A program made the translations under genes and the position numbers. A DNA stretch of 12,178 nucleotides from a virus: IMG/VR virus record IMGVR_UViG_3300022538_000930; one strand, given 5' to 3'. The notes beneath the pieces are model-generated. The model was not told the DNA's origin, made no database searches, and saw only the letters and a program-made list of their open reading frames with translations. Positions 1 through 12,178 of the stretch are shown one piece after another. The stretch's first letter is position 1; each line of letters begins with the position of its first letter.

Positions 1-141
1 ATAGTTATAGAGGAAGCAAACACTCTTTAATGAATTTCTTCAACATAACAGAAGAGGAGATAGCATGAAACACATAAGAGCATCATTTGAAGATGAAGAA
101 TTTAAGCCAATTAGTAAGCTGAAAGACAAGCTCAAAAAAGG
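1..141. repeat. Terminal overlap, copy 1 (identical to 12038-12178); the contig closes into a ~12,037-bp unit
   Basis: Base-by-base comparison: atagttatagaggaagc...gacaagctcaaaaaagg is present at both ends, 141/141 identical. ORFs read through the junction undisturbed (1-68 is the 3' end of the ORF seen at 11857-12105). Confidence 0.95.
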
Positions 142-387: not shown

Positions 388-493
388 AATTATGAAAATA
401 AAATTTAAAGATTTGAGCGGATGGCTTAAGTTAGCTGCTATTGCTGGCTGGGTTTATAGCGTCGCTGTGATTTATATAATCTTAACATGGTAA
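368..493 (+). CDS. 41-aa single-pass membrane mini-protein
   Basis: Internal ATG 368 of track ORF 302-493 is preceded by a strong SD, aggaggtg (355-362), 5 nt upstream. The hydrophobic segment is LKLAAIAGWVYSVAVIYIIL. The stop (491-493) overlaps the next ATG (487). Confidence 0.55.
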   Translation: MEEKYLKIMKIKFKDLSGWLKLAAIAGWVYSVAVIYIILTW

Positions 494-837
494 AACAAAA
501 AGGAATATGCGAAGAATGTAAGAAGGAGTATGAATATGATTATAATCCAAAATTCCCTCGGAAGTATTGCTTTGAGTGTTCAGCGAAGAAGAAGGCTGAG
601 TTTGAGAACAGACCAGCAGAAACAAGCGCAGAAGTTAAGCCTGAAAGAATTAAGCAGGAAGTTGAAATGGGAACAACACCCTACAAAGGACGCCCTGAGA
701 ACAACTCAAGAGATGTGATGATGCTGACGAGTTATGCAAAGGATTTGATGGTTGATGCTAAACACATAAAGTATAGTGCCCAAGAAGCTGCAGATATAAT
801 CTTGAAATTGCATAAAATCATCTCAGAGGGGATATGA
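487..837 (+). CDS. 116-aa zinc-ribbon protein (CxxC-x17-CxxC N-terminus, helical C-terminus)
   Basis: ORF track. The motif is MVKQKGICEECKKEYEYDYNPKFPRKYCFECS. It is followed by a charged linker and a helical tail. Confidence 0.7.
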   Translation: MVKQKGICEECKKEYEYDYNPKFPRKYCFECSAKKKAEFENRPAETSAEVKPERIKQEVEMGTTPYKGRPENNSRDVMMLTSYAKDLMVDAKHIKYSAQEAADIILKLHKIISEGI

Positions 838-1104: not shown

Positions 1105-1160
1105 GGAGATGCGATGGAACTGGATGAAGTCTGGCGCAGGTTCGAATCCTGCCGTCTCCA
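1105..1160 (+). other. tRNA-like acceptor/T-arm minihelix (tRNA gene fragment, not a complete tRNA); possible att core or processing signal
   Basis: gcagg-ttcgaat-cctgc (1136-1152) is a canonical T-arm with a GTTCGAATC loop. It is followed by a 7-nt acceptor 3' strand cgtctcc and discriminator a (1153-1160). ggagatg (1105-1111) can pair with that strand using one G-T pair. Only 24 nt separate the two strands, no D or anticodon stem can be drawn there, and position 8 is C rather than T. Confidence 0.6.
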
Positions 1161-1225: not shown

Positions 1226-1420
1226 TTATTTTAATTTAGTTTTGCACTGCACAAAGGCAACAAAACAGATCTTCTTCATTTGAGAACTCTCTTTAATCAG
1301 AATAACATCAAATGGGCTTTTAGAGCCAGCTGTTCTCACAGCAATCCAGCCTTTTTCTTTAAAGATATTTACAACTTCTTGTTCAAGTCTTCTTCCTCTT
1401 TCATAGTTTTTGTTTGGCAT
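1226..1420 (-). CDS. 64-aa Hjc-type (archaeal Holliday-junction resolvase / PD-(D/E)xK) mini-nuclease, C-terminally short
   Basis: YERGRRLEQEVVNIFKEKGWIAVRTAGSKSPFDVILIK....FVAFVQCKTK parallels the Hjc pattern from memory: ER..V..L...GF.VVR...SGSK..PDIIA....IEVKS. The conserved E, the R..GS motif and the D are present. The final motif reads Q-C-K instead of E-x-K. The ORF ends 5 residues later, whereas Hjc proteins are usually ~120-140 aa. Confidence 0.6.
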   Translation of the reverse strand: MPNKNYERGRRLEQEVVNIFKEKGWIAVRTAGSKSPFDVILIKESSQMKKICFVAFVQCKTKLK

Positions 1421-1783
1421 ATTTTAAGGGGCAGGATGAAAAAGATGGTATCTAATGAATTGTGCATTTGAAAGCAGAACTCGCCTGCCCTATATTTAGA
1501 AGGGGCCTGTCTATATATACTTTTGGATTTCCGTCTATAACAGGAAATTATAGATTGCTCTAAAATGCTTGTTGAGGCAGCAATCCAGCTGCTCCGAATG
1601 GAGCCCTTGACGCTGAAACGAGCTTTTTCGGCTCATCTAAGCTACCTAAGGACAGGCATGGCTTAAGATTAACACAACTTACAGCCTGTGATTCTTCCCT
1701 TAATTAATTAAATTTGCTCCCTATGGACTTAACCAAACCCCACCTTTCGATACTGATGACGATAACGGGAACTTCGAGGCGCC

Positions 1784-1945
1784 TTACACGTGACTTTCTT
1801 TTGTATATTGACCTTTAGATAACTCAGGAAACAATAATTCTCCATTTTGTTTTCTAATTTGAGAGTACTTAAGTTTCTTTAACTCTTCCTGCTCCCACTC
1901 TTCTAATTGATATGCATGAACTGAGAACGGAAAGTTAAAAGCCAT
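1784..1945 (-). CDS. 53-aa hypothetical protein (shorter start preferred over track ORF 1784-2053)
   Basis: The sequence is MAFNFPFSVHAYQLEEWEQEELKKLKYSQIRKQNGELLFPELSKGQYTKESHV. The ATG (A at 1945) lies 30 nt downstream of the palindromic TATA box ttatataa (1968-1975), the same spacing as the other promoters. The longer N-terminal extension would overlap a predicted + strand promoter at 2019. Confidence 0.4.
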   Translation of the reverse strand: MAFNFPFSVHAYQLEEWEQEELKKLKYSQIRKQNGELLFPELSKGQYTKESHV

Positions 1946-1967
1946 GAATAATAGAGGGGATTGTTGT

Positions 1968-1975
1968 TTATATAA
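1968..1975 (-). promoter_or_regulatory. TATA box (ttatataa) for the minus-strand 53-aa ORF
   Basis: The distance from the TATA start to the ATG is 30 nt, matching the 27-30 nt rule seen at the other promoters in this genome. Confidence 0.4.
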
Positions 1976-2018
1976 GGTGTTGAGTACTTGAAAATAACAG
2001 CACTCTAACGAAGAAAGA

Positions 2019-2026
2019 TTTATATA
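2019..2026 (+). promoter_or_regulatory. Orphan BRE/TATA-like promoter (agaaaga-tttatata) with no substantial ORF downstream
   Basis: gaagaaagatttatatag closely resembles the capsid-operon promoter cagaaagatttaaatata at 8626-8641. The only ATG at roughly the right distance (2044, 25 nt) opens a 24-codon ORF. The next real gene starts at 2454. Confidence 0.4.
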
Positions 2027-2120
2027 GATAGAAGACTTTAGAAATGTACTCATTTCTACATACCAACATACATAAGCCCTCTTTGTTAGAGTGCATAAAG
2101 GCTCTCACGGCCACATAGAC

Positions 2121-2224
2121 CCCGCGCCTTCCCTTCTTAAGAAGTATGTGCAGTCTAAGCTTAGCTTACATAGTCTCTTGGGAGCAGAATTATTTAGGTA
2201 CACGCGAATTAAGAAGACCGCGGG
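2121..2224. repeat. Interrupted inverted repeat (cccgcg..cttcttaa / ttaagaag..cgcggg) enclosing two perfect palindromes
   Basis: 2121-2126 is complementary to 2219-2224, and 2133-2140 to 2209-2216, giving 14 bp with an asymmetric internal loop. Inside are cttcttaagaag (2133-2144, a 12-bp perfect palindrome) and ctaagcttag (2155-2164, a 10-bp perfect palindrome). Confidence 0.6.
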
Positions 2225-2230
2225 CTAATT

Positions 2231-2278
2231 GGGGTGTAATCACTACTAATCAGTAGTGACACCCCTTTATAGTAGTGA
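2231..2278. repeat. 14-bp bulged hairpin plus a third copy of its arm motif (agtagtga)
   Basis: ggggtg (2231-2236) pairs with cacccc (2260-2265), and tcactact (2240-2247) pairs with agtagtga (2252-2259). The loop is aatc and the bulge is taa. agtagtga recurs as a direct repeat at 2271-2278. Confidence 0.6.
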
Positions 2279-2314
2279 TTTGTTCACTTAGGTCACCTTA
2301 GTGCACAACAGAAT

Positions 2315-2436
2315 AATTCCCGGAAATTTTCACTTGAAAAAAAGCGGGAAATTTAAAAGAACGCGACATTCAAATTCCTGCATATATAAGTTCGCTTATC
2401 CCGACCGACAAAATTTTAGAAAATTATTTAAATTCC
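2315..2436. promoter_or_regulatory. Cluster of GGAAATT / AATTCC half-sites across the terL upstream region
   Basis: aattcc occurs at 2315-2320, 2373-2378 and 2431-2436, the last overlapping the TATA box. ggaaatt occurs at 2322-2328 and 2347-2353. The first two sites form an imperfect palindrome, aattcc-c-ggaaatt. Confidence 0.3.
2427..2434 (+). promoter_or_regulatory. TATA box (tttaaatt) for terL, leaderless spacing
   Basis: It lies 27 nt upstream of ATG 2454 in an AT-rich context. Confidence 0.5.
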
Positions 2437-2453
2437 AAAATATTATAATTATT

Positions 2454-3770
2454 ATGGAAATCAAGCTCGACAAGTGGCAGCAAGAAATCTTAAATTATGA
2501 TGGAGACATTCTTTTGTGCAAAGGGCGAAGGATTGGCGGCACTGAAATCTTTTCAATAAAAGCAGCAGAAAGAATGATTAAGAAACCCGGGGTTAAAATT
2601 GTCTTTGTTTCACTAACAGAAGATCAAGCCAAATTATGCATATCTGTTGCCCATGAATATTTGATAAGGAATTATAAGAAATTCATTGGAAAAGGCAAGA
2701 AAAAGCCACAATTAGGAGCATTATTCTTAACAAATGGCTCGTCTATGATAGTGAGGGCTGTTGGGGACACTGGAAAGGGTGTACGGGGCTTTGATGGGGA
2801 TGTATTAGGAATAGATGAAGCTCCATGGCAACCTGCGGCAATGTGGAGAGCTGCACGACCGATTATAACAACTAATGATGGGGAGATATGGATGTGGGGA
2901 ACCCCTGCGGAAGATAAAGGCTATTTTTATGAACAATATGATAAAGCATATAATAAAAAAGACCCAGACGCGCGCTTTAAGGTCTGGCATAAGAACACAG
3001 AAGAGGTTTTGTTTAATAGACCTGTCTGCGCGAGTTGGACACAGAAACGGAAGGAAGGAGCAATAAGAATTTTAGCAGAAGAAAAGAGAGACATGACAGA
3101 CATAGAGTACGGAAATGAATATCTCGGGCTCTTCCTCTCTGAACTTAAGAGATTCTTCGACGACGATTTAATAAAAAAGGCGTGCATCTTAGAAAAGGAA
3201 CCAGACATGATCGGAAAGAGATATTTAGGAGTTGATGTTGGGAGAATGTTTGATCCAAGCACATTTGAAGATGTCTGTAAGAAAGGAAATATAGTTTATC
3301 ATGTGGATAGTTATACAACTCACAAAACCTACACAAATGAAACTCAGGATAAAATAATAAAACTTAATGAGGCTGTGAATTATAAGAAGATTGGGATTGA
3401 TGCGGGCTCTGGCGCGTTGGGGGTTGGTGTCTACGACAACCTCATGGTAGTTTCAAAAATAAGGGGGAAGTTAGAAGCGATGAATAATAGATCAATAGCA
3501 TTAGATAAGGAAGGAAAAAAGAAACAGAGAACAAAGAGATTAGATTATTATAACAATCTGAAAGCGATGATGCAGAACGTAGAAATTAAACTTTTAAAGG
3601 ACGATGAAGTAATTGCAAGCCTTCGTTCTGCAAGATGGGATATTGCAGATGAGAATGATCCTAATAGCAAAATGGTGATCATGGGCAACAACCTCCATAA
3701 AGTAGAGGCTTTGATGCGCGCAGCAGAGCTTGCCAAAAAAGACAAAAGTTTAAATATATGGGTTCGTTGA
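2454..3770 (+). CDS. terL: Terminase large subunit (438 aa)
   Basis: The ATPase domain has a Walker A-like LCKGRRIGGTE, a Walker B DVLGIDEA, and a coupling motif WGTP. The nuclease domain has the acidic motifs YLGVDVGR, IGIDAGSG and LLKDDEV. Start moved to ATG 2454 (MEIKLDKWQQEIL), because the GTG-2301 extension is low-complexity and contains the promoter. Confidence 0.9.
   Translation: MEIKLDKWQQEILNYDGDILLCKGRRIGGTEIFSIKAAERMIKKPGVKIVFVSLTEDQAKLCISVAHEYLIRNYKKFIGKGKKKPQLGALFLTNGSSMIVRAVGDTGKGVRGFDGDVLGIDEAPWQPAAMWRAARPIITTNDGEIWMWGTPAEDKGYFYEQYDKAYNKKDPDARFKVWHKNTEEVLFNRPVCASWTQKRKEGAIRILAEEKRDMTDIEYGNEYLGLFLSELKRFFDDDLIKKACILEKEPDMIGKRYLGVDVGRMFDPSTFEDVCKKGNIVYHVDSYTTHKTYTNETQDKIIKLNEAVNYKKIGIDAGSGALGVGVYDNLMVVSKIRGKLEAMNNRSIALDKEGKKKQRTKRLDYYNNLKAMMQNVEIKLLKDDEVIASLRSARWDIADENDPNSKMVIMGNNLHKVEALMRAAELAKKDKSLNIWVR
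3749..3756 (+). promoter_or_regulatory. TATA box (tttaaata) inside the terL 3' end, serving ORF 3777
   Basis: acaaaag-tttaaata lies 28 nt upstream of ATG 3777. Confidence 0.5.
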
Positions 3771-3776
3771 AATATT

Positions 3777-4139
3777 ATGGTAGATACACTCTGTTCGAGC
3801 TACGCTGTGATTAATAAAGCTGGTGCAAACGCAAACACAACAGCAAGCTCTTCGGCAACAATAATCTCGCAGTTCATAAATGAGGCAGAAGGATTAATTT
3901 GTTCTGAAACAACTTATGACTGGGTTACTAATCATTCATCCCTTAGCAGCTTCGCTAAACATGTTGTCGGACTTGCTTGTGCGAATTTCGCAGCGATGGG
4001 GGTTATAAATTATGACCCTGACGCATGGCAGTTGGCAGTTGCAGAGACCAAGCTTGACGTCCTATGGAATGGGTATCTGGCAGCGATGCGACCACTATCA
4101 GATAAAGCAAATAAACAAGTCTTCATAAAGAAACCTTAA
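3777..4139 (+). CDS. 120-aa protein, possible head-tail adaptor/connector (gp6-like)
   Basis: ORF track. The gene lies between terL and the portal. The segment IISQFINEAEGLICSETTYDW resembles the N-terminal helix pattern of head-tail connector proteins, a weak by-eye match. Confidence 0.35.
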   Translation: MVDTLCSSYAVINKAGANANTTASSSATIISQFINEAEGLICSETTYDWVTNHSSLSSFAKHVVGLACANFAAMGVINYDPDAWQLAVAETKLDVLWNGYLAAMRPLSDKANKQVFIKKP

Positions 4140-4140
4140 A

Positions 4141-4803
4141 ATGCCAAAACATCCAATCCTATTCAGAGATACAGCGAAGAAGATAATCATAACTTATAAT
4201 TATTTAGATATTGCGGAAGGGACTGGGGTAGTTGTATTTTATGGAAATCATCTGCAAAGAGCAGGCAGTAGTTATTATAAGCTATTAACAACAGCGATAT
4301 ATTCTCACAATATCCAGCAGACCCCTGTTGTTTTTACAGATACTTCATGGACTCAAAAGTTTGATTTAGATTTTGAGGTTGTGTTTAATATTCCCAAAAC
4401 TATTAAAGGATTAGTTAAAGCATCTATCCCAATCTGGGTTGAGAGCAACGACGACGGCAATGTATCAAGCGGGAAAGCATATGTAAGAATCTATAAATTA
4501 AAAGGGGGGGTTGGGACACCAATTTTATTAGGGGAGAGAGAGAGTGGGCCTGTTAATGTAGATCAAACCCCAAGAGATTTCGCAAAGAATGTATTAACAG
4601 ATGTCTTAATTCCCCTAACACATTTTTCAAAAGGAGATATGTTGAGAATAAAAGTTGAAGTGTGGGGTATTGTTGCTGCGGGGGTTCTATCTAAGATTTC
4701 CGTCGCGCACGACCCGGTCGGGAGAACAACAACAGAGTTTCCCGGAACAGAGGGAGACACCACCATAATAAGGTTTGACATTCCTTTCTTAATTGAGGTA
4801 TAA
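4141..4803 (+). CDS. 220-aa beta-rich hypothetical virion protein
   Basis: ORF track. It is tightly packed, starting 2 nt after the previous stop, with its own stop abutting the portal ATG. The composition suggests an all-beta fold. It contains a G7 tract at 4504-4510. Confidence 0.7.
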   Translation: MPKHPILFRDTAKKIIITYNYLDIAEGTGVVVFYGNHLQRAGSSYYKLLTTAIYSHNIQQTPVVFTDTSWTQKFDLDFEVVFNIPKTIKGLVKASIPIWVESNDDGNVSSGKAYVRIYKLKGGVGTPILLGERESGPVNVDQTPRDFAKNVLTDVLIPLTHFSKGDMLRIKVEVWGIVAAGVLSKISVAHDPVGRTTTEFPGTEGDTTIIRFDIPFLIEV

Positions 4804-5949
4804 ATGGGAGATTTAGATATAGGCACAGCAAAAGCAAGCGACATGGAGAATTGGGAGAAGACAGAGATGCCCTCACTGAGCACCGACGGCATTTCAGACC
4901 AGAAAGAAACAGTTTATACCAATCCTATCTGGGAAAAGAACTGGGGGGCATTCCTCACCCATCCCGAATTGAAAACAGCTCTCCTTATGAAAGCGGTTTG
5001 GAATGTAGGGAAGGGCTATACAGCAGATGCACGAACAACACGAATTCTTGACAACATCACAGGAGCGGGAGGCGACAGCTTCACAGATATTTTATTTAAT
5101 ATGGAATTAGTTCGCAGAGTTGGAAGGGATAGTTTTGCAGCAATTATGAGAGATGTGGAAAGCGGAGAGTTAATAAATCTTAGGACTCTTGACCCGGGCA
5201 GTATGAGAATCATATATGGACCCCAAGGAATGATTATAAGATATGAGCAGATGAAGAAATTTCCAAAAAAAGGAGTATGGAACTGGGTGAGAAATGCAGT
5301 AGGGAAAAAAGATGTTATTCCTTTCAGACCTGATGAGATTTTTCACTTAACACTTAACAGACTCGCCGACCAAGTGCACGGCATCTCTGACATTGAAAGC
5401 TTGGATGATACACTCATAGCTGAACTTGAGAGCTTTAATGATATGGTTAAAATATCACACAGGCAGGGTAGACCATTTATAGTTTTCAAATTAAAGACCG
5501 ACGACCAAACCAAGATAGATGAGATTATTTCAAAGGTTAATGATTTAAGAGAGAAGGGAGAGGATTTTTGGATACCTGACGACGAAGATGTATTTAGTTT
5601 TGAGGTTGTTAGCACAACAATCTCACCATTAATAATGGACTGGAGAAGAGAGGTGCTTGAACGCCTTTACAGAGCCTTGGGTATGCCCTTAGTTTTATTC
5701 GGGAGCACAAAATCCACAGAGAGCGGGGGCAAGATGGAAGTCTTTGCACACGAACAGATATTTCAGCATGACCAGAAATATATAGAAGAGCAGGTTTGGA
5801 ATCAACTGGCATTAAGAATAGACTTAATCCCCCCTCAATCTATTGCACCCGGTTTAGCTACCGACGAGAAAAAGGACTTAGGAGCAGAAGGCGCACCTCA
5901 GGGTTTAGAAACACAACCAGCAGATACAACTGCGGGAGTAGGAGAATAA
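4804..5949 (+). CDS. Portal protein (381 aa)
   Basis: The SD gaggt lies 4 nt upstream. Size and position fit a portal. The core RPDEIFHLTLNRLADQVHGISDIESL...GRPFIVFKL...MDWRREVLERLYRALGMPLVLFG resembles HK97-family portal proteins by eye. Confidence 0.75.
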   Translation: MGDLDIGTAKASDMENWEKTEMPSLSTDGISDQKETVYTNPIWEKNWGAFLTHPELKTALLMKAVWNVGKGYTADARTTRILDNITGAGGDSFTDILFNMELVRRVGRDSFAAIMRDVESGELINLRTLDPGSMRIIYGPQGMIIRYEQMKKFPKKGVWNWVRNAVGKKDVIPFRPDEIFHLTLNRLADQVHGISDIESLDDTLIAELESFNDMVKISHRQGRPFIVFKLKTDDQTKIDEIISKVNDLREKGEDFWIPDDEDVFSFEVVSTTISPLIMDWRREVLERLYRALGMPLVLFGSTKSTESGGKMEVFAHEQIFQHDQKYIEEQVWNQLALRIDLIPPQSIAPGLATDEKKDLGAEGAPQGLETQPADTTAGVGE

Positions 5950-6980
5950 TGCCAAAGAAAAAAGAGGAAGAAGAAGAGAAAAAGAAAAGATTTAGAATGA
6001 TAAAAACAACAACACCCGGGGGAATTAGACCGACGAGATTTGGAATTGGCGGTAGAGAAGTTTCACCAGAAGAATTTAAAAGCCGTCAGCAAGAAGCCAG
6101 AATATTAGCAGCAGGCGGCCATAAAGCCAGAACAACAGCGGAGTTAATACGAGCGGGATTACTCCCTGGGGAAGCGCCCATTGAAGGAGGGGTAGCCCCA
6201 GAAGAAGTTCCTGCCGAAGTCTCGCCAGAGGAAGCAAGAGCAGATGAAAGCTTTAGAGTTGCAATAAATAGAGAGAGAGAAAGGCAAGGAAGAGCACCAA
6301 TCACCGACGAGGAATTTGCGGCGGAAGTTGAGAGGCGAAAGCCATTTGAGACTATTGGCGGAACATTAGGGGGTTTTGTAGAAACCCTAAAAGAAGACCC
6401 TTTAAAAATAGTTGAAGACATTCCTCTTGCGTTAGGTATGGGTGCAATCCCGACTGCAATAGGTTCTTCTGTTATGGCAACTCCCGGAGCCACAGCCCAA
6501 GCATTAGTAGGCTTAACTTCTGAATTAGGGAGATGGACAAAAATTATAGCAGGGGGAGCTATAATTGGATTATTAACTGCAAGCGCCAAGAGAATGGAGT
6601 CACAAGTTTCTAAGGCTGGAGAATCATTAACAAAACTCGCTGAGAGTGTGGTATTAGGATTTTACTTAGATGATGATGGGAATATTGCCGAGTACACTGA
6701 GGAGATGGGTTTAAGAGCAGTAGATGAAATTGAAGCTGGACTTAATGAAGCAGAAAGCGAATTAAAGCGAGGTTCAATTGGGAACTCTGCCCTAAAAATT
6801 TCAGGATTTTACAAGAACGCAGTAGGTGAAATAGAAAAACAAAGGAAAGAAATAACTGTCGCAAGGGGAAAGATAGTAGCCGTGCAGTTAAATCCGAGTG
6901 AGGAATTACTTAAGAAGAGGGCAGCATTTAGATCTTTAGAGTTCTTAGAGCAGCTTAAAAAACTGGGAGAATTGAAATGA
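5949..6980 (+). CDS. 343-aa protein with a K/E-rich N-terminus, Gly/Ala-rich hydrophobic core and coiled-coil C-terminus (possible internal/ejection or minor head protein)
   Basis: ATG 5949 overlaps the portal stop (TAATG), with aggag upstream. The N-terminus is MPKKKEEEEEKKKRF. The hydrophobic stretches are LALGMGAIPTAIGSSVMATPGATAQALVGL and IIAGGAIIGLLTASA. The 5796 extension in the track overlaps the portal and is rejected. Confidence 0.7.
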   Translation: MPKKKEEEEEKKKRFRMIKTTTPGGIRPTRFGIGGREVSPEEFKSRQQEARILAAGGHKARTTAELIRAGLLPGEAPIEGGVAPEEVPAEVSPEEARADESFRVAINRERERQGRAPITDEEFAAEVERRKPFETIGGTLGGFVETLKEDPLKIVEDIPLALGMGAIPTAIGSSVMATPGATAQALVGLTSELGRWTKIIAGGAIIGLLTASAKRMESQVSKAGESLTKLAESVVLGFYLDDDGNIAEYTEEMGLRAVDEIEAGLNEAESELKRGSIGNSALKISGFYKNAVGEIEKQRKEITVARGKIVAVQLNPSEELLKKRAAFRSLEFLEQLKKLGELK

Positions 6981-7150
6981 AAAATAAAATAGACTGGAGA
7001 ATTGTAGTTACAGGAATGATTTGCATAACTGTAATTGAATTGTTTGCTCTTTCTGAAGGTATGAACGGAGTTCTGCTTACAATTGTGATTGGCATAATTG
7101 CAGCTGCATGCGGTATTGCAGTCCCAAAGCATAAAGTTTATAAAGAGTGA
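6977..7150 (+). CDS. 57-aa two-TM membrane mini-protein
   Basis: Hand translation gives MKNKIDWRIVVTGMICITVIELFALSEGMNGVLLTIVIGIIAAACGIAVPKHKVYKE*. It has an ATGA overlap with the upstream stop. It is below the ORF-track cutoff. Confidence 0.55.
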   Translation: MKNKIDWRIVVTGMICITVIELFALSEGMNGVLLTIVIGIIAAACGIAVPKHKVYKE

Positions 7151-7165
7151 GTGAGTGTATATTCT
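7123..7165 (+). promoter_or_regulatory. BRE/TATA promoter (tttataaa at 7137-7144) plus conserved spacer; paralogue of the promoter at 11355-11397
   Basis: The TATA box is 29 nt upstream of ATG 7166. The 21-nt spacer gagtgagtgagtgtatattct matches gtgtgagtgattgtttattgt at 17/21 positions. The upstream 14 nt match at 10/14. Confidence 0.6.
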
Positions 7166-7486
7166 ATGGAAGACGAAAAAGCCAAGTCAGAAGTAGACAA
7201 AGCTGCGGAAGATGAACAACCTGCAGATGAAACTTCTGACGACAAAACAGCTCAAGAGGACGCCTCGAAAGAGGCCTCTTCTACTTCTATGATTGATGCT
7301 GCAACTCAGGCAGCAGAGAGGCTTGAGAAAGTCAACGAAGCTCTTTCTAAGAACCTTGACAGGCAGGAGAAGCTTGATGCCCGAAGAATGTTAGGCGGAA
7401 GAGCAGAAGCAGGGCAGGAAGTTAAGCCAAAGACCCGGGAAGAGAAAGATCAGGAAGTTGCTGATAGCTGGATGAAGGAGGAGTAA
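7166..7486 (+). CDS. 106-aa highly acidic, helical protein; scaffolding-protein candidate
   Basis: The N-terminal stretch is MEDEKAKSEVDKAAEDEQPADETSDDKTAQEDASKE and the central stretch is AAERLEKVNEALSKNLDRQEKLDARR. It is low-complexity and acidic with coiled-coil character, and lies upstream of the capsid genes. Start chosen at ATG 7166 by the promoter spacing rule, whereas the track uses GTG 7151. Confidence 0.5.
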   Translation: MEDEKAKSEVDKAAEDEQPADETSDDKTAQEDASKEASSTSMIDAATQAAERLEKVNEALSKNLDRQEKLDARRMLGGRAEAGQEVKPKTREEKDQEVADSWMKEE

Positions 7487-8085
7487 TGTCAAGCTTAATT
7501 TTTGGAACAAGAGGGGCTTATCATATGTCTGAACTTTTTAAAACATTTGCACAGGCACAGATGTTCACTTGGAAACGGAAAAATCTGAATGTTTGTGAAT
7601 GCGGGCAGGAAAAGAAAGGACATAAAAAAGGGAAGAAGTATATTAAAATGATTTCTAAGGATTTTGTTAAATTTATCAGCAAAGATGAAAAAATATTATG
7701 CCGAAGATGTATTAAAAAGGAATTAGTATGCAACAAATTTAAACCCCGGGAAGAGCTGACGTCTGTTCAGGCATCACTCCGCCCTATTCAGTTATGGGAA
7801 TATGTTTTTCCCGACGAGAGCATGGCAGATGTATTTTCTGCATTAGGTTTAACTGCAGAGGACGGAAAGCCTGAAGCTACAAAGCACTGGCCTCTTTCTA
7901 AAACTAAAATGTGGGCGCTGAGAAAAGCCTTAAAGTGTGAACCAATCCCTGATGTCAAATGGCAGAGACCCCAGAGATTTATTATGCATACGGGGATTTC
8001 ACTATACCCGATTGGAATAAGAAGAGATGAAAGGGGAGAGATGTCAGCACCGGGAGAAGGACACTGGCAGCAGGAATTAATATGA
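7486..8085 (+). CDS. 199-aa zinc-ribbon-containing hypothetical protein
   Basis: The SD aaggaggag lies upstream, and there is a TAATG overlap. The zinc-ribbon segment is CECGQEKKGHKKGKKYIKMISKDFVKFISKDEKILCRRC. The C-terminal ~110 aa have no recognisable motif. Confidence 0.7.
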   Translation: MSSLIFGTRGAYHMSELFKTFAQAQMFTWKRKNLNVCECGQEKKGHKKGKKYIKMISKDFVKFISKDEKILCRRCIKKELVCNKFKPREELTSVQASLRPIQLWEYVFPDESMADVFSALGLTAEDGKPEATKHWPLSKTKMWALRKALKCEPIPDVKWQRPQRFIMHTGISLYPIGIRRDERGEMSAPGEGHWQQELI

Positions 8086-8348
8086 GGTTTTTGAGAAGAG
8101 GGTCCGCCAACTGGAAGAGAAAAATAAAGCAGCTGCCAGCTGCTACTATTATTATGCTTATTATTGGATTAGTAGTGGGCGGTGTAAGTGCGTATGGAAT
8201 GGGCTTTTATGATGGGGTGAAATGGTCTGTTAATTTTGCTATCACTTATTTAGATCTTAATGTTGATGCAGAAACAATAACAGCAGGATTAATAATATAT
8301 GGAAAGCACATAGATCCTTCAATGGTGGGGGCTAATATTACAGAATGA
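8082..8348 (+). CDS. 88-aa N-terminally anchored membrane protein
   Basis: ATGA overlap with the upstream ORF. A basic N-terminus, RRGSANWKRKIKQ, is followed by the TM segment LPAATIIMLIIGLVVGGVSAYGMGF. Confidence 0.6.
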   Translation: MRFLRRGSANWKRKIKQLPAATIIMLIIGLVVGGVSAYGMGFYDGVKWSVNFAITYLDLNVDAETITAGLIIYGKHIDPSMVGANITE

Positions 8349-8638
8349 AAATAATAGAATTACTTGCAGAAGTAAAAATAAGATTATCAATAGGGCAGCA
8401 GTGGTTTTATGAGCTTAGAAACGCAGTTTTGATCGGCGCGGGTTTGAAAGTTCTCCTTGATTTATCTTTAAAGAATGCTATAATCCTTACAGCTTTTATT
8501 TTAATGGGTTTCTTTGTCGTCGGTGCACTTGATTTAGACTGGCTTAGGCTCGCTCAAAAGATGGCAGAATTAACAACCTCCAAATATAATCCTCATTTGA
8601 ATAAAATTAGCCGTTTAGTGAAGAACAGAAAGATTTAA
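8345..8638 (+). CDS. 97-aa membrane protein (one to two TM segments, basic C-terminus)
   Basis: ATGA overlap with the upstream ORF. Hydrophobic segments are AVLIGAGLKVLL and AIILTAFILMGFFVVGAL. The architecture is holin-like, but no homology is claimed. Confidence 0.6.
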   Translation: MKIIELLAEVKIRLSIGQQWFYELRNAVLIGAGLKVLLDLSLKNAIILTAFILMGFFVVGALDLDWLRLAQKMAELTTSKYNPHLNKISRLVKNRKI

Positions 8639-8662
8639 ATATAAGGTATACCCCGGTATACC
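8634..8662 (+). promoter_or_regulatory. Capsid-operon promoter: TATA tttaaata (8634-8641) plus two tandem GGTATACC palindromes (8645-8652, 8655-8662)
   Basis: cagaaaga-tttaaata lies 29 nt upstream of ATG 8663. The spacer taaggtataccccggtatacc holds two copies of a self-complementary 8-mer spaced 10 bp apart, abutting the start codon. Confidence 0.65.
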
Positions 8663-9079
8663 ATGGCTATTGCCGCACTTCAACCAATCAAAGTTTTTCT
8701 TAGGGGAGCTCAGAATGACGGGGAACCTCTGACCTGGTCCTGCGCATCCGGAACAGCGATTGCCAAGTGGACTTCTTTAAAATTTGCAGACGGAAGGATA
8801 GTTTCAGAATCTGGAGCTGCAGGAGATTTCTTTGCAGGATTTGCAGCTGCAGATAAAGACGGCACAGACCACTCTACTCAAATCGCAGTAATTCAAAACT
8901 CAGTTATGAATGTTGTTTGTTCACTCGGCTGCCTTGCAGGAGACCTTTTGGCAACAGCTTCACCATCAGGCACTTTCGCACCAGTAATTAATAATACTTC
9001 TTCGCAGGCAGTTATTGCAGGGGTTGCTATGGATAGTGTTGGCGCTGGTGAAAGAGTAAATATGAGGGAAAATCTATAA
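8663..9079 (+). CDS. 138-aa head decoration / capsid cement-like protein (DUF2190-like pattern)
   Basis: The gene lies immediately upstream of the MCP gene. It is Gly/Ala/Val-rich with a beta pattern: FAGFAAADKDGTD..IAVIQNSVMNVV..LAGDLLATASPSGTFAPV..VIAGVAMDSVGAGERVNM. This is typical of small decoration proteins encoded before HK97-type MCPs, a by-eye call. Confidence 0.45.
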   Translation: MAIAALQPIKVFLRGAQNDGEPLTWSCASGTAIAKWTSLKFADGRIVSESGAAGDFFAGFAAADKDGTDHSTQIAVIQNSVMNVVCSLGCLAGDLLATASPSGTFAPVINNTSSQAVIAGVAMDSVGAGERVNMRENL

Positions 9080-9080
9080 A

Positions 9081-9977
9081 ATGGCAACTGGAAGCGCGGG
9101 TTCAGTATGGGCTGGTGATGTTGAGGTAGGCGGAACTGAGCTACGAAAGGAAGTTGTTGATATTGTTATTAAAGGACGAGCAGACCCAACTTATAAGTGG
9201 AAGCAAGCTGTTGCTATTTCTAAAACAAATGCTAATAAAAATACATTCTGGCGGGAAGACCCTGACTCTTTGGATGAGCCAGCAGGCGGGTCAATTAAGG
9301 GAATTCCAAGAGGTGGAGATTTCCCTCAGGGAACTGTTCAGTGGGAAGAACACACTGCGGTCCTGCAGAAATACGGCTTCCGTGACTTTGTTTTCTGGGA
9401 AGATATCAGAACAAATGATATTAATGTTATGAAGAGGACAATCTATAAGATTACTGATAAGACTATTAAAACGGTTGATGAGGAGATTAAAGATATTCTA
9501 TCAGAGGGGGGAACTCCGGTTGATATTCAAAGCGTGACAATAACAGGCTCACGAAGATGGGCAGCTTCAAGTGCAGCTATCATGGATGATATGATGCATG
9601 CCAAGCAGTTGATTGGTGAAAAGGATTATGATACTTCAAACCTTATGATGTTTATCAGTGAACAAGACCATAGAAACATGGTGAACTATATTTATGAAAA
9701 GGGAGCACAAGCGCCTTCTTTCGGCACTGAAGTGGCTAAGAATGGACGTGTGGGGGGTTTAGCAGGCATTAAGAATATAGTAGTAACAAACTCATTAAAA
9801 AACGCATCCTTTGCTCTTGTTGTAGTTCCAAAAGTATGTGGAACATGGAAAGAGAACTTTGCTCTCTCATCAGATTTAACAAGTGAACCTTTCAAGGGAA
9901 CAAGGGTGACAGTCTGCGAAGTTGGAGTCACACAACTGACAGACCCTAAAGCAATTTGCATGATTAAAGACACTTAG
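9081..9977 (+). CDS. Major capsid protein, HK97-fold-like (298 aa)
   Basis: Size and synteny fit (scaffold-like, then decoration-like, then this gene). The long helix RTIYKITDKTIKTVDEEIKDIL is spine-helix-like. The C-terminal beta-rich core is GGLAGIKNIVVTNSL...ALVVVPKVCGTWKENFAL...GTRVTVCEVGVTQ. Confidence 0.65.
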   Translation: MATGSAGSVWAGDVEVGGTELRKEVVDIVIKGRADPTYKWKQAVAISKTNANKNTFWREDPDSLDEPAGGSIKGIPRGGDFPQGTVQWEEHTAVLQKYGFRDFVFWEDIRTNDINVMKRTIYKITDKTIKTVDEEIKDILSEGGTPVDIQSVTITGSRRWAASSAAIMDDMMHAKQLIGEKDYDTSNLMMFISEQDHRNMVNYIYEKGAQAPSFGTEVAKNGRVGGLAGIKNIVVTNSLKNASFALVVVPKVCGTWKENFALSSDLTSEPFKGTRVTVCEVGVTQLTDPKAICMIKDT

Positions 9978-9982
9978 AAAGT

Positions 9983-9990
9983 TTTAAATA
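9983..9990 (+). promoter_or_regulatory. TATA box (tttaaata) for ORF 10012
   Basis: tagaaag-t-tttaaata lies 29 nt upstream of ATG 10012. The spacer is pyrimidine/T-rich. Confidence 0.6.
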
Positions 9991-10011
9991 TCTTCTTTCT
10001 TTATTATTTCT

Positions 10012-11064
10012 ATGGCAGGTTGGACTTGTCCGGATAAATACTGGAACATTTGGAAAGGCGGATTAAAAGCTGATGAGTTGAAAATAGAGAATGATATTAT
10101 TGGGGGCTATTTTGCAACAACAGATGTTCAACCATTCACTAACAAGCCGATTGCTCTTTTTGTAGAAGATGGAGTTACTCCAGAGCAGACTGTTTTAAGC
10201 ACAGTAAATAAAGGAATAGCAATTCAAGCAGATGGGGCAGCTTATTATTCTGCGAGAGATGTGACAAATGACATAGAGTTTGTTATGGGTACTTCAAATC
10301 AAGGAGTAGGTTTCTTCTCTACTATGACAGACCACAGGATAGAAATAAGACCAAATAACCAACCCGTCCATAGATTTGAAACAGGGAAATACGTCGGGGC
10401 CTATAATGGTGTTAGCACTTTGGGCCCTCATTCCCTTGTGAAATTAGGTTGTGCAATAAATACTGGAAACATTGCAATCGGAATGAGGGGAAGCGATACA
10501 TCATTTCAGTATTACATGTTCGGAAGTGCAACAGACAGTTACATTGGGGGATTAAGGTATGATTGCTCAACAGACACCATGGATATACAGGTTGCTAATG
10601 CTGCACAATGCACAATCTCAGCCACAACCTTTGACTTTAAAGACAATGAACTACACAATGAAAAATTTAAAATCACAAATACAGGAGCATATTGCATCAA
10701 GCTCACAAATAAAACAGGAAGTAATACCGTCGCTGGGCAAATAGTGAAGACCTTGGCAGGAGTGGGGAATCCAGATGATGCAGTTGCATTGGCAGGAGTG
10801 AGTGAGTTGCATCCAATCGGAGTGTTCTTAGAATCTGGTGTTACTGATGGCAGTGAAGCTTGGATTGTTGTTTCTGGTATTGTCAATGTTCTTGTTGACG
10901 CTGGGGGTTGTGCCAGAGGGGATAGATTAATCACAGGGGCAATAGGAGGATTCGCAACAGTAAATAATGCCCCGTCGGTTGCGGTTCATTTTCAAGAGAT
11001 AGGACACTGCATAGAAACAAGAGCAGGCGCGGGATTAGCAAGAGCAGTATTACATTTCAATTAG
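10012..11064 (+). CDS. 350-aa structural protein with an N-terminal beta-rich region and a C-terminal decoration-protein-like domain (possible capsid-anchored fibre/adhesin)
   Basis: ORF track, with its own promoter. The C-terminal ~110 aa align by eye with the 8663-9079 product. VTDGSEAWIVVSGIVNVLVDAGGCARGDRLITGAIGGFATVNNAPSVAV pairs with DKDGTDHSTQIAVIQNSVMNVVCSLGCLAGDLLATASPSGTFAPVINNTSSQAV. Confidence 0.7.
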   Translation: MAGWTCPDKYWNIWKGGLKADELKIENDIIGGYFATTDVQPFTNKPIALFVEDGVTPEQTVLSTVNKGIAIQADGAAYYSARDVTNDIEFVMGTSNQGVGFFSTMTDHRIEIRPNNQPVHRFETGKYVGAYNGVSTLGPHSLVKLGCAINTGNIAIGMRGSDTSFQYYMFGSATDSYIGGLRYDCSTDTMDIQVANAAQCTISATTFDFKDNELHNEKFKITNTGAYCIKLTNKTGSNTVAGQIVKTLAGVGNPDDAVALAGVSELHPIGVFLESGVTDGSEAWIVVSGIVNVLVDAGGCARGDRLITGAIGGFATVNNAPSVAVHFQEIGHCIETRAGAGLARAVLHFN

Positions 11065-11152: not shown

Positions 11153-11302
11153 ATGGCAAGAGAAATAGACAATCACAAAAAGGCAGACTTGGAGAAAGTT
11201 TTATGTGATAATTATACATGCGTTCTCCGAGGAGATATTGCAAGATGCTATCTTCATATCTATGTAGAATGCCAGAAATATCACAAGCGCCCCAGAAAGT
11301 AA
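11153..11302 (+). CDS. 49-aa Cys/His-containing mini-protein
   Basis: Hand translation gives MAREIDNHKKADLEKVLCDNYTCVLRGDIARCYLHIYVECQKYHKRPRK*. It has 4 Cys and 3 His and a basic tail. It is below the ORF-track cutoff, and coding status is uncertain. Confidence 0.35.
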   Translation: MAREIDNHKKADLEKVLCDNYTCVLRGDIARCYLHIYVECQKYHKRPRK

Positions 11303-11356
11303 TATTTATACTATTTATACTATTTATACTATTTATACTATTTATACTATTTTACC
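11303..11356. repeat. 9-bp tandem repeat tatttatac x5 perfect plus one degenerate copy
   Basis: Perfect copies lie at 11303, 11312, 11321, 11330 and 11339, and tattttacc follows at 11348. The array sits between the 49-aa ORF stop and the mini-ORF operon promoter. Confidence 0.9.
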
Positions 11357-11397
11357 AAAAGCGAAAGGTTTAAATAGTGTGAGTGATTGTTTATTGT
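11355..11397 (+). promoter_or_regulatory. Promoter of the mini-ORF operon (TATA tttaaata at 11369-11376); paralogue of 7123-7165
   Basis: gcgaaagg-tttaaata lies 29 nt upstream of ATG 11398. About 80% identity to the 7123-7165 promoter over 43 nt. Confidence 0.65.
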
Positions 11398-11574
11398 ATG
11401 GCTGAAAAAGAATTTGTTTTAAGTGAGAAATTATTTATTAAGCTGTTGAAAGAAGAATTTTGCACGGGAAAAGAATATGATACAACAATTAAGGAATTTT
11501 GTTCTAAAGGAGACCATTTTTATTGCGAGAATTGTGAGAAAATAGATAAATTAGCAGGGGGTTTGAGTGGATGA
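11398..11574 (+). CDS. 58-aa Cys-containing mini-protein (first gene of the mini-ORF operon)
   Basis: The sequence is MAEKEFVLSEKLFIKLLKEEFCTGKEYDTTIKEFCSKGDHFYCENCEKIDKLAGGLSG. Start set at ATG 11398 by promoter spacing, whereas the track uses GTG 11383. It has C..C..CxxC spacing. Confidence 0.6.
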   Translation: MAEKEFVLSEKLFIKLLKEEFCTGKEYDTTIKEFCSKGDHFYCENCEKIDKLAGGLSG

Positions 11575-11729
11575 AAATAAAACTAACACGTGAAGATTTT
11601 AAAAGTTTCATAGAGCAGGTTAAGGAAACGCAGAGAAAGAGAATGTATGCGCAGCTATTTGATAATATACTTTTAGCGTCGCTGTTGAAAGAAATTAAAA
11701 AGTTTCCGAAAGCAAAGGTGAAGAAATGA
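11571..11729 (+). CDS. 52-aa helical mini-protein (possibly RHH-like)
   Basis: Hand translation gives MKIKLTREDFKSFIEQVKETQRKRMYAQLFDNILLASLLKEIKKFPKAKVKK*. It has ATGA overlaps at both ends. Confidence 0.5.
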   Translation: MKIKLTREDFKSFIEQVKETQRKRMYAQLFDNILLASLLKEIKKFPKAKVKK

Positions 11730-11860
11730 AAGTCGGAAATACATCTATTGAAAATGAACACGGATTGTTCGAGCAAGAATGTGATTGTAATATGTTTCCT
11801 TGTAATTGTTATTATCAAGATAATAAAGGTCATTGGAAGAAGAAAGAGGATAAAAAATGA
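11726..11860 (+). CDS. 44-aa Cys-knuckle mini-protein
   Basis: Hand translation gives MKVGNTSIENEHGLFEQECDCNMFPCNCYYQDNKGHWKKKEDKK*. The motif is CxC-x4-CxC. It has ATGA overlaps at both ends. Confidence 0.5.
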   Translation: MKVGNTSIENEHGLFEQECDCNMFPCNCYYQDNKGHWKKKEDKK

Positions 11861-12105
11861 AACTTAAAACTTTGAAGGACTTTATAAAAGGATATGAAGG
11901 ATTTGGCAGCTATCCAAAAGATAAGCACATTTCTGTGTGTATTATTAGAGCATTTGATGAATTAAAACAAGAAGCAATCAAGTGGATGAAGCATTTTGAT
12001 GGTTGTATGAAAAACACCAAAAGTGATACTGCTTGGCATAGTTATAGAGGAAGCAAACACTCTTTAATGAATTTCTTCAACATAACAGAAGAGGAGATAG
12101 CATGA
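11857..12105 (+). CDS. 82-aa hypothetical protein
   Basis: ORF track. It has ATGA overlaps at both ends. Its last 68 nt are repeated at 1-68 because of the terminal overlap. Confidence 0.65.
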   Translation: MKLKTLKDFIKGYEGFGSYPKDKHISVCIIRAFDELKQEAIKWMKHFDGCMKNTKSDTAWHSYRGSKHSLMNFFNITEEEIA

Positions 12106-12178
12106 AACACATAAGAGCATCATTTGAAGATGAAGAATTTAAGCCAATTAGTAAGCTGAAAGACAAGCTCAAAAAAGG
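12038..12178. repeat. Terminal overlap, copy 2 (identical to 1-141)
   Basis: See copy 1. The partial ORF beginning at ATG 12102 is the same gene as 65-208. Confidence 0.95.

Follow-up and report, generated by a model that had tools for sequence, protein, structure and literature searches.

The window analyzed here is the full 12,178-nt stretch of IMG/VR record IMGVR_UViG_3300022538_000930; features lie on its plus strand unless stated otherwise. Its first 141 nt (1..141, no strand) constitute an exact direct repeat, identical to positions 12038-12178. The repeat length equals the MEGAHIT k-mer, and the terminal repeats in relatives (141, 127, 123 or 99 nt) also correspond to assembler k-mers. 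The repeat is therefore an assembly overlap that closes a circle of 12,037 bp, and the genome is complete and circular or circularly permuted. More than 120 related contigs were identified, none longer than about 13.3 kb when concatemeric assemblies such as those of relatives L002 and L097 are set aside. The family includes seventeen closed genomes of 9.4-12.5 kb with a common gene order, and the synteny of about ten morphogenesis genes is kept across the family. A search for a description of this family found none.

The window encodes the head and packaging genes of a tailed-type virus. The large terminase subunit, TerL (2454..3770), matched phrog_2 (1e-32, residues 4-421) and PF03237 (9e-9, on the N-terminal domain), and the closest deposited TerLs are 22-25% identical to it. 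The portal protein (4804..5949) matched phrog_12 (5e-12) and phrog_9232 (6e-9), with PF04860/PF06074 annotated on its orthologues in relatives. The major capsid protein (MCP; 9081..9977) matched PF25209 (8e-11) and phrog_1650 (1e-18), and has 145 homologues, with identities from 100% to 42% among the 120 matches listed. By these profiles the MCP is of the HK97 type, and the first-pass annotation, made from the sequence alone, was correct in naming these three genes. The gene set typical of Duplodnaviria/Caudoviricetes, MCP, portal and TerL with ATPase plus nuclease, is thus present at the level of sequence.

The gene originally called decoration-like (8663..9079) encodes a capsid cement/decoration protein at the family level, since PF09956 matches 17 of 29 family members (best 8e-12) and PF22758 matches 4. 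The scaffold-like protein g111 (7151..7486) is indeed acidic (pI 4.5, 28% D+E), and its conservation extends to 68 loci (cluster C7); a family search gave no match, and we infer that it may act as the scaffold.

Fibre-type proteins

The module had been described as head-only, which is not the case. Protein gp350 (10012..11064), encoded in the modular fibre/receptor-binding slot of the family, consists of a conserved N-terminal anchor (M[AG]GW.xPD...WDG..KA), a unique middle region and a C-terminal domain also found in 7 relatives. Jackhmmer searches with the separate parts gave 39 matches for the N-terminus, 8 for the C-terminus and 1 for the middle, and the mean identity is 37% for residues 1-28 versus 7% for residues 61-160. 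In relatives, the same anchor is fused to tail-fibre or receptor-binding domains. Proteins of the slot matched the Pfam families Collar (3e-21), Mtd_N (2e-18) and Laminin_G_3 (3e-28), as well as PKD, BppL_N, BclA_C and Phage_depo_C, and the tail-fibre PHROGs phrog_9942 (7 members), phrog_18345 (4 members), 4591, 1800, 8469 and 2097. A direct Pfam/PHROG-type search with gp350 itself gave no domain match. Judged from the common anchor and the gene position, gp350 is a fibre/receptor-binding protein.

The second fibre-type protein, g220 (4141..4803), is modelled as a stand-alone jelly-roll β-sandwich (AF2 pLDDT 89.7, pTM 0.84). The model resembled, in PDB, the CocE C-terminal domain (TMq 0.5), TNF/C1q-like trimers and a portal-tail chain of cyanophage A4, and, in BFVD, domains of tail fibre/spike proteins (1e-8). 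The g220 proteins form 1,949 cluster representatives at 50% identity, and in some relatives the slot is filled by a tail-collar fibre protein (phrog_1800, 6e-12). We assign g220 as a predicted fibre-type/receptor-binding jelly-roll, with high confidence for the fold. Two of the four ORFs first left unassigned are thus fibre-type, and a third (7486-8085) encodes a conserved α/β protein lacking any known structural relative.

The position of the fibre gene directly 3' of the MCP and cement genes would fit a particle with no tail at all. A tailless HK97 particle could carry gp350 and g220 on its shell like head fibres, with the DNA leaving through a bare, plugged portal. A cement protein is encoded, its profile weakly matches the "capsid fiber protein" chain 6qyy_A (E 0.075), and two members of the gp350 slot match the head-decoration PHROG phrog_2647. 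However, hhalign shows no relation between the gp350 C-terminal domain and the cement protein (probability 3.7%), so that the one test of the capsid-anchored adhesin suggested at first pass was negative. The Collar, Mtd_N and BppL_N domains of the slot are of tail-fibre or baseplate types, and the conserved core proteins g120 and g199, which have no assigned head role, are plausible vertex components. We consider a tailless particle unlikely.

Portal-vertex candidates and missing functions

The core protein g120 (3777..4139; cluster C6, 70 loci) gave no match in Pfam, PDB or GenBank phages, and may be a head-completion or adaptor protein. The core protein g199 (7486..8085; 81 loci) is modelled as an α/β protein (AF2 pLDDT 79, pTM 0.69) with no fold match in PDB. 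Its invariant or near-invariant residues are R9, G10, Q95, R99, E105, D181 and E197, the window copy carries a Cys-rich insertion, and g199 was found on 69 IMG/VR contigs, each of at most 12.6 kb.

The post-portal protein gp343 (5949..6980) begins with a charged, disordered stretch, continues with a hydrophobic middle rich in Gly and Ala, and ends in a helical C-terminus. The slot is filled in every case by a protein of 266-537 aa; homologues of gp343 are limited to a few close relatives, and the alternative post-portal cluster C11 shows weak tape-measure and tail-lysin matches. Tentatively, gp343 could be an internal/ejection or tape-measure-like protein. Hydrophobic segments mark three small membrane-type proteins: g57 (6977..7150; cluster C13, 19 loci), and gp88 and gp97 (8082..8638), which lie within the structural operon, have homologues in 13 and 25 loci, respectively, and are putative holin-like or assembly proteins.

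Searches against Pfam and PHROG gave no match in any window ORF to tube, sheath, tape measure, baseplate, protease or small terminase (TerS), nor to polymerase, primase, Rep or integrase, in agreement with the absences listed at first pass. In the window genome a lysis enzyme was not recognized, nor was any fold of the adaptor, nozzle, tube or stopper kind, and the window ORFs gave no tail profile match. The first-pass annotation would have taken nozzle, tail-tubular or fibre proteins plus a replication initiator as signs of an ordinary small podovirus. Fibre proteins were found, but a nozzle, a tail-tubular protein and a replication initiator were not, and the element is therefore not an "ordinary" podovirus either. 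Because a replication initiator, TerS, protease and lysis enzyme were not recognized, dependence on another element is possible.

Such dependence is central to the idea of an archaeal capsid-forming satellite, analogous to the bacterial cf-PICIs, which would build its own small head and packaging machinery and use a helper for tail and delivery and perhaps replication. The lack of recognizable tail tube, adaptor, nozzle, replicase, TerS and lysis genes in the window, a size of 12 kb within the range of bacterial satellites and three core proteins without assigned function are in line with this idea. On the other hand, the family encodes its own diversifying and rapidly exchanging fibre/receptor-binding proteins, and its diversity is enormous, as seen from the g220 clusters. 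Neither the window nor any of the accessory clusters sampled gave an integrase match, and none of the more than 120 contigs reaches into host DNA, the longer contigs being concatemers. Moreover, tblastn searches with portal, g120, g199, g220 and MCP gave no match among 50,697 deposited virus records, and the first four have no relatives on larger IMG/VR contigs, so that no helper-compatible connector is evident. The cf-PICI-like reading is weakened by the family's own fibres, the lack of an integrase or an integrated copy, and the lack of a connector protein in common with larger viruses, and we regard it as improbable. If correct, it would make the element the first archaeal HK97-lineage capsid-forming satellite, with its own T=3 head and host-range fibres, hijacking the tail/ejection and replication functions of a larger archaeal virus; we give this only a small chance.

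Promoters, non-coding elements and host

Several genes are preceded by BRE/TATA boxes: at 3744..3756 for the leaderless g120 (AAAAGTTTAAATA), at 8629..8641 for the cement-MCP operon (AAAGATTTAAATA) and at 9978..9990 for the fibre gene gp350 (AAAGTTTTAAATA). The regulatory region of the small-ORF operon (11300..11376) contains about five 9-nt units in tandem (TACTATTTA) and, after them, the BRE/TATA box AAAGGTTTAAATA. Upstream of TerL, a conserved non-coding element (2362..2453; GCTTAWCCC..GACAAAATTTTAGAAAAT..) has a TATA-like sequence, TTTAAAT, 27 nt upstream of the ATG; the element is conserved by blastn in relatives L068, L079, L006 and L007, and its motif is also present in L061, L062, L070, L057 and L058. 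We interpret it as a promoter, possibly with a regulator or pac site. The combination of BRE/TATA box and leaderless start was observed 4 times in the window versus 0.04 expected, and across the family 113 of 436 TATA motifs begin exactly 25-30 nt upstream of the start codon. The genes are transcribed in at least five units, with archaeal BRE/TATA promoters and leaderless mRNAs.

The ORF-free region (1421..2300, no strand; no supported ORF) contains structured hairpins at 2000-2094 and 2231-2265 with fold z-scores of -8.0/-5.8 and -4.5, which are candidate origin, terminator or packaging signals. A tRNA-like mini-element (1105..1160) has a 7-bp acceptor stem, a T-arm and a discriminator A, with about 20 nt in place of the D and anticodon arms. 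It scored 25 bits with the Rfam tRNA model, under the gathering score of 29, and covariance model R1 located copies in at least 7 genomes of the family, among which the acceptor stem comes in at least 3 different versions.

The variable early region encodes a 116-aa Zn-ribbon protein (487..837; CxxC...CxxC) with a 41% identical homologue in L068 and no Pfam or PHROG family. A short Hjc-like PD-(D/E)xK nuclease is encoded on the minus strand (1226..1420); the Hjc-like gene proposed at first pass is not fully confirmed, being a form of 64 aa with a weak match to PF01870 (1.4e-4). The conserved pattern is E...SAGS...D...QxK, the proteins of its cluster (C24) are 64-123 aa long, and the copy in L068 is 70% identical. 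Four small ORFs of 58, 52, 44 and 82 aa form one operon (11398..12105); they gave no family match in Pfam/PHROG, only gp82 has homologues (in L068), and they are putative early or regulatory genes.

The suggestion of an archaeal host from the promoter grammar holds up and is strengthened by the counts given above, so far as the host domain can be read from sequence. Below the domain level, hosts were assigned by MAG binning, and the bins of relatives are contradictory (two Woesearchaeota, one uncultured archaeon and two Patescibacteria). The two relatives in Patescibacteria MAGs (38% MCP identity) would fit a small phage of ultra-small bacteria (Patescibacteria/CPR) rather than an archaeal virus, and the 25-mer of the tRNA-like element is present in bacterial tRNAs too. 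However, both Patescibacteria-binned contigs (L013 and L015) share the BRE/TATA and leaderless arrangement with the whole family and reuse the 8629..8641 box position, as do other relatives. Three binned relatives, among them the closest one (52% identity), are in archaeal bins, and the window encodes an Hjc-type nuclease. The binned contigs are viral throughout, and the binning therefore mirrors composition and coverage only. A bacterial host is, in our view, highly improbable. A small-celled archaeon of sediment or groundwater is the probable host, possibly a member of DPANN/Woesearchaeota.

Proposed life style and comparison with known systems

Among the three readings offered at first pass, we favour the minimal podovirus-like virus. 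The window, a complete genome of 12,037 bp, is probably that of an archaeal virus with an autonomous, lytic or episomal life style, from a large lineage of Duplodnaviria (Caudoviricetes-type) not described before. The acidic g111 would scaffold a small capsid, for which the genome length suggests T=3. TerL would fill it by way of the portal with DNA cut from concatemers, probably in headful mode. The portal vertex could then be closed by a very short, non-canonical "stub" of g120 and g199, to which the fibres would attach. The Gly/Ala-rich post-portal protein gp343 may be packaged and help carry the DNA across the envelope. Replication would rely on host enzymes plus small early proteins; a RepA/DnaB-like helicase is added in some relatives. 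If the virus is autonomous, what would be new about it is a minimal vertex for DNA delivery, with g120 and g199 as candidate parts.

The archaeal tailed viruses compared here were those of haloarchaea and methanogens, the Asgard Verdandiviridae (~19.5 kb) and the Bathyarchaeia Fuxivirus (32 kb). They have in common with the window an archaeal host grammar as well as the HK97 MCP, portal and TerL. The window TerL shows distant similarity (24-25% identity) to its counterparts in HGTV-1 and PhiF1. In contrast to them, the genome is 2-5 times smaller and lacks a tail tube or other canonical tail genes, and the core proteins g120, g199 and g220 occur in this family only. The median genome of archaeal Caudoviricetes is 54.3 kb (PMC10541130). 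The first-pass view that 12 kb lies at the extreme low end for tailed viruses is upheld and strengthened, and among the tailed-type viruses known from archaea this one would be the smallest by a wide margin.

Bacterial cf-PICIs resemble the window in having genomes of ~10-15 kb and their own MCP, portal and TerL without tail-tube genes. They are reportedly integrated islands with an integrase that use helper tails, including helper fibres (Alqurainy et al. 2023, cited in 10.1101/2025.02.15.638363), and to our knowledge they have no fibre/receptor-binding proteins of their own. Unlike them, this family has fibres of its own (the gp350 slot and g220), no integrase and no integrated copies.

The "twilight" encapsulin-like mini HK97 elements of the human gut are also small, DTR-closed genomes that have an HK97-fold protein and lack tail genes (~8.9 kb, temperate, with integrase; Aguilar et al. 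2025, 10.1101/2025.06.18.659913), but they have neither portal nor terminase. An assignment to these elements was rejected, since portal, TerL and fibres are all encoded by the family and the MCP match is to the phage capsid family PF25209, not to an encapsulin.

The smallest bacterial podoviruses are Mycoplasma virus P1 (11.7 kb), Salmonella phage astrithr (11.6 kb) and the phi29-like Salasmaviridae (18-27 kb). A phi29-like protein-primed podovirus was rejected, since no window ORF matched a polymerase, and neither a protein-primed PolB nor a terminal protein turned up; the window TerL is classical, whereas the phi29 type consists of gp16 with pRNA. The window further differs from the smallest podoviruses by its archaeal promoters and by the lack of sequence similarity (tblastn, 50,697 records). 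Like them, it has an HK97 MCP, a portal and few vertex/fibre proteins without tube, sheath or tape measure, as well as a scaffold of ~100 aa and head decoration or fibres. It also falls in the same size class, its length agreeing with the 11.8 kb (95% CI 8.1-17.1) predicted for a T=3 capsid (PMC7762592).

Genome layout and family of the head genes

The 141 nt at the two ends of the window are identical direct repeats, and many relatives likewise carry terminal repeats of 141, 127, 123 or 99 nt, which are assembler k-mer lengths. The repeats thus reflect circular assembly closure, giving a window genome of 12,037 bp with almost all genes on the plus strand. Profile searches confirmed the TerL, portal and MCP-like calls made in the first-pass annotation, with TerL at 2454-3770 (+; phrog_2, 1e-32; PF03237, 9e-9), the portal at 4804-5949 (+; phrog_12, 5e-12) and an HK97-type MCP at 9081-9977 (+; PF25209, 8e-11; phrog_1650, 1e-18). 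The gene preceding the MCP gene (8663-9079, +) gave no match from the window copy alone, and PF09956 (Phage_cement_2) was matched by 17 of 29 orthologues (best 8e-12), so its earlier description as decoration-like is right and we refer to it as the cement protein. The label scaffold-like for g111 (7151-7486, +) is a reasonable one for a protein that is acidic (pI 4.5) and conserved.

None of the Pfam or PHROGs families for a tail tube, sheath, tape measure, baseplate, protease, small terminase, polymerase, primase, Rep or integrase was matched by a window ORF, in agreement with the absences that had been noted by eye. Sequence-level searches of the PDB gave no match for the portal, the MCP profile, TerL, g120 (3777-4139), g220 (4141-4803), g199 (7486-8085), gp343 (5949-6980) or gp350 (10012-11064); the sole exception was a weak capsid-fibre hint from the cement profile. 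Three small membrane proteins (6977-7150, 8082-8348 and 8345-8638) lie within the structural operon, which is unusual in a head module; they may act as holins or as membrane-associated factors for assembly or egress.

MCP homologues numbered 145 in a collection of 5.8 billion proteins, many of them on contigs of 11-12.7 kb. Scans of IMG/VR, where the family is represented by unnamed contigs only, yielded 80 loci with the MCP alignment, 69 with g199 and none with a single-sequence MCP pattern. A fused g220+g199 profile query retrieved only 5 proteins. For g220, 1,949 cluster representatives at 50% identity were found in 1.84 billion proteins, showing that the lineage is both diverse and widespread; the sources of family members include the Loki's Castle marine sediment assembly. 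The 17 closed genomes of the family measure 9.4-12.5 kb, and only 3 of 125 family loci exceed 12.7 kb. One of these (L009) is a contig of 13.3 kb; the other two, L002 (20.2 kb) and L097 (17.5 kb), were considered as integrated copies and rejected, both being concatemers with repeated gene sets.

Clustering of all ORFs revealed a conserved gene order, which runs from TerL through g120, in some cases an SNase nuclease, g220, the portal and a variable protein of 266-537 aa to the small hydrophobic protein g57 (6977-7150, +), g111, g199, small membrane proteins, the cement protein, the MCP, a protein of variable length and a variable small-ORF region. Several accessory genes of relatives are absent from the window, namely an AAA_25 RepA/DnaB-like helicase (L002-L005, L038), the staphylococcal-nuclease-like (SNase) protein between g120 and g220 (L082, L011), a SpoU RNA methylase (L009/L010) and a pentapeptide-repeat protein (L098).

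Promoters, host domain and non-coding elements

The motif RAARNTTTAAATA is present in four copies in the window (0.04 expected), each of which precedes an ATG by 23-31 nt without an intervening Shine-Dalgarno sequence. Across the family, 113 of 436 TTTAWATA copies begin at a distance of exactly 25-30 nt before a called start, with 5-13 in the neighbouring bins. This spacing is the archaeal BRE/TATA arrangement with leaderless mRNA. An archaeal host, to which the first-pass annotation had pointed, is well supported. Relatives were binned in MAGs of Woesearchaeota (L012, 52% MCP identity, and L016), of an "uncultured archaeon" (L014) and of Patescibacteria (L013, JBBTQM010000005.1, and L015, JBAZMD010000025.1). 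The last two are whole-contig family members in public MAGs; as their cement and fibre genes are preceded by this same arrangement of promoters, they are probably binning contaminants. A DPANN host is only suggested, and the family is probably associated with small-celled archaea of sediment and groundwater.

Directly upstream of TerL, at 2362-2453, a non-coding element of the form GCTTAWCCC..GACAAAATTTTAGAAAAT..TATAAAT is kept at the nucleotide level in distant relatives (L068, L079, L006/7, L061, L062, L070, L057 and L058). We take this element to be a promoter that may also hold a packaging site or a binding site for a regulator. Two strongly structured hairpins were observed in the 880-nt ORF-free region, one at 2000-2094 (z = -8.0/-5.8), which contains a TATA-like sequence, and one at 2231-2265 (z = -4.5); they are candidate origin, terminator or small-RNA elements. 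About five tandem copies of the 9-nt unit TACTATTTA are found at 11300-11352, directly upstream of a BRE/TATA box at 11364-11376, and could form a regulator-binding array for the small-ORF operon.

A tRNA-like mini-element at 1105-1160 (+) comprises an acceptor stem, T-arm and discriminator and has neither D nor anticodon arm. Further copies are present in L011 (10599-10659), L072 (9114-9168), L071 (8102-8163), L009 (964-1033 and 1053-1113), L097 (2797-2856) and L023 (10734-10788), with at least three acceptor-stem sequences, changed on both strands. The exact 25-mer of the window element recurs on 21 metagenome contigs whose upstream sequences are unrelated; some of them carry two or three copies, and in some cases the 25-mer forms the 3' end of a real tRNA. 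The 25-mer was rejected as a host marker: a matching long tRNA on contig L144 resembled an intron-containing tRNA of archaea, but L144 comes from a Chloroflexia bacterium. Thus, the 25-mer is a generic tRNA 3' end and the mini-element gives no host information; its possible roles are those of an att-like fragment, a signal for RNase P/Z processing or a decoy. On the metagenome contig L129 (5514-6731), two copies of the 25-mer adjoin an array of 12 tRNA genes, and this contig may be a large virus or mobile element with both real tRNAs and mini-elements.

Fibre proteins and candidate vertex proteins

The first approximately 60 residues of gp350 (10012-11064, +) are common to 39 proteins occupying the same slot after the MCP, the last 134 residues are common to only 7 proteins, and the middle part is unique. 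The shared anchor carries the motif M[AG]GW-x-PD...I-WDG-x-[IL]KA, which in L034 and L039 is fused directly to a phage tail-collar domain. Among 48 slot proteins scanned singly, tail-fibre PHROGs were identified repeatedly (phrog_9942 in 7, phrog_18345 in 4, and also 4591, 1800, 8469 and 2097), as were the Pfam domains Collar (3e-21), Mtd_N (2e-18) and Laminin_G_3 (3e-28), with further matches to PKD, F5/8-C, BclA_C, BppL_N and a depolymerase C-terminal domain. The mean identity of the slot proteins is 37% over residues 1-28, whereas it is 7% over residues 61-160. A conserved anchor with a divergent remainder is the hallmark of a receptor-binding fibre whose attachment module is fixed and whose tips can be exchanged. 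No direct domain match was obtained for gp350 itself, and its assignment as a fibre therefore rests on anchor and position. The C-terminal domain of gp350, suspected by eye to be a cement-like capsid anchor, was rejected as such (hhalign probability 3.7%).

The AlphaFold2 model of g220 (4141-4803, +), built from a 102-sequence alignment, is an all-β jelly-roll (pLDDT 89.7, pTM 0.84). Its fold resembles the galactose-binding-like C-terminal domain of CocE/NonD hydrolases in the PDB (TMq ~0.5), with weaker likenesses to TNF/C1q-like trimers and to one chain of the portal-tail complex from cyanophage A4. The leading matches in BFVD (best E-value 1e-8) were to domains within large tail-fibre or tail-spike proteins, including S74-chaperone-domain proteins, collagen-repeat fibres, minor tail proteins and a fusellovirus end-filament protein. 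In some relatives, the g220 slot is occupied by a protein matching "tail collar fiber protein" (6e-12).

The protein g199 (7486-8085, +) was found in 81 loci, with R9, G10, Q95, R99, E105, D181 and E197 invariant or nearly so. A PDB search with its model (pLDDT 79, pTM 0.69) retrieved no structural neighbour (best E 1.6, TM at most 0.16). Compared with the family consensus of 158 aa, the window copy carries a Cys-rich insertion (CxC...CxxC...C) of some 40 aa (7590-7740, residues ~36-85), which was modelled at low confidence (pLDDT 53-69); a shorter version is seen in L006 (6154-6639). The core protein g120 (3777-4139, +) belongs to no detectable family. In gp343 (5949-6980, +), which has only few close homologues, a charged N-terminus is followed by a middle part rich in Gly and Ala and by a helical C-terminus. 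A different post-portal cluster (C11) gave weak tape-measure and tail-lysin matches in a Gly-rich segment; homology of gp343 to such proteins was not established. The Hjc-like nucleases of the family (cluster C24, 9 loci; window 1226-1420, -) have Q-x-K throughout, where Hjc has E-x-K, and the copies of the window and L068 (64-65 aa) stop directly after it, without the C-terminal ~30 aa of the other copies.

Autonomy and comparison with known systems

The window, an archaeal genome of 12 kb, combines head and packaging machinery of the Caudoviricetes type with a vertex apparatus that is reduced and unrecognisable. We infer lifestyle, packaging mode, T-number and the host below domain level. 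A satellite of the cf-PICI type would be dependent on a helper, consistent with the lack of a recognisable adaptor, nozzle, replicase, TerS or lysis enzyme. However, the element has its own diversifying fibres, there is no integrase and no integrated copy was seen. MCP, portal, g120, g199 and g220 had no tblastn match in 50,697 deposited phage and archaeal-virus genomes, and neither the MCP-based nor the g199-based IMG/VR scan returned a contig above 12.7 kb, so that no helper-compatible connector is evident. We therefore regard an autonomous minimal virus as the probable reading and a satellite as unlikely; a tailless particle, with the fibres described here borne on the capsid, seems similarly improbable. 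The non-structural module of the family is highly plastic, and the presence of an AAA_25/DnaB-like helicase in a few relatives (PF13481, 5e-29) indicates that the replication module varies and can be replaced. The length of the genome agrees with the biophysical prediction for a T=3 HK97 capsid (mean 11.8 kb, 95% CI 8.1-17.1; PMC7762592), the T-number being deduced from length, and genome sizes end sharply near 12.6 kb, in keeping with a headful ceiling.

If the autonomous reading is true, the small HK97 capsids of T=3 size that have long been sought as the "missing tailed phages" have hundreds of natural representatives in this family. Its vertex proteins, conserved yet unrecognisable, suggest that there is a minimal way to close the portal and deliver DNA, which is relevant to tail evolution and to the degree of simplicity that an HK97 virus can reach. 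The modular anchor and receptor-binding fibre would make host-range evolution readable straight from metagenomes. Viruses of small-celled sediment and groundwater archaea, the probable hosts, are almost unknown.

We found no description of the family in the literature; nearest are the "twilight" mini HK97 elements (Aguilar 2025), a different group, without portal and terminase. Archaeal satellites so far described are plasmid-derived and tied to spindle-shaped viruses or one siphovirus, none with an HK97 capsid gene. The smallest isolated tailed phages are bacterial podoviruses of 11.6-11.7 kb (PMC7762592), and the median genome length among archaeal Caudoviricetes is 54.3 kb, 32 kb being described as small (PMC10541130). 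The window TerL shares 22-25% identity with the TerL proteins of Meiothermus phage MMP17, HGTV-1 and Methanobacterium virus PhiF1. To our knowledge, the smallest archaeal tailed-type viruses are the Verdandiviridae, at about 19.5 kb, and an autonomous virus of about 12 kb would set a new lower size limit for this group.
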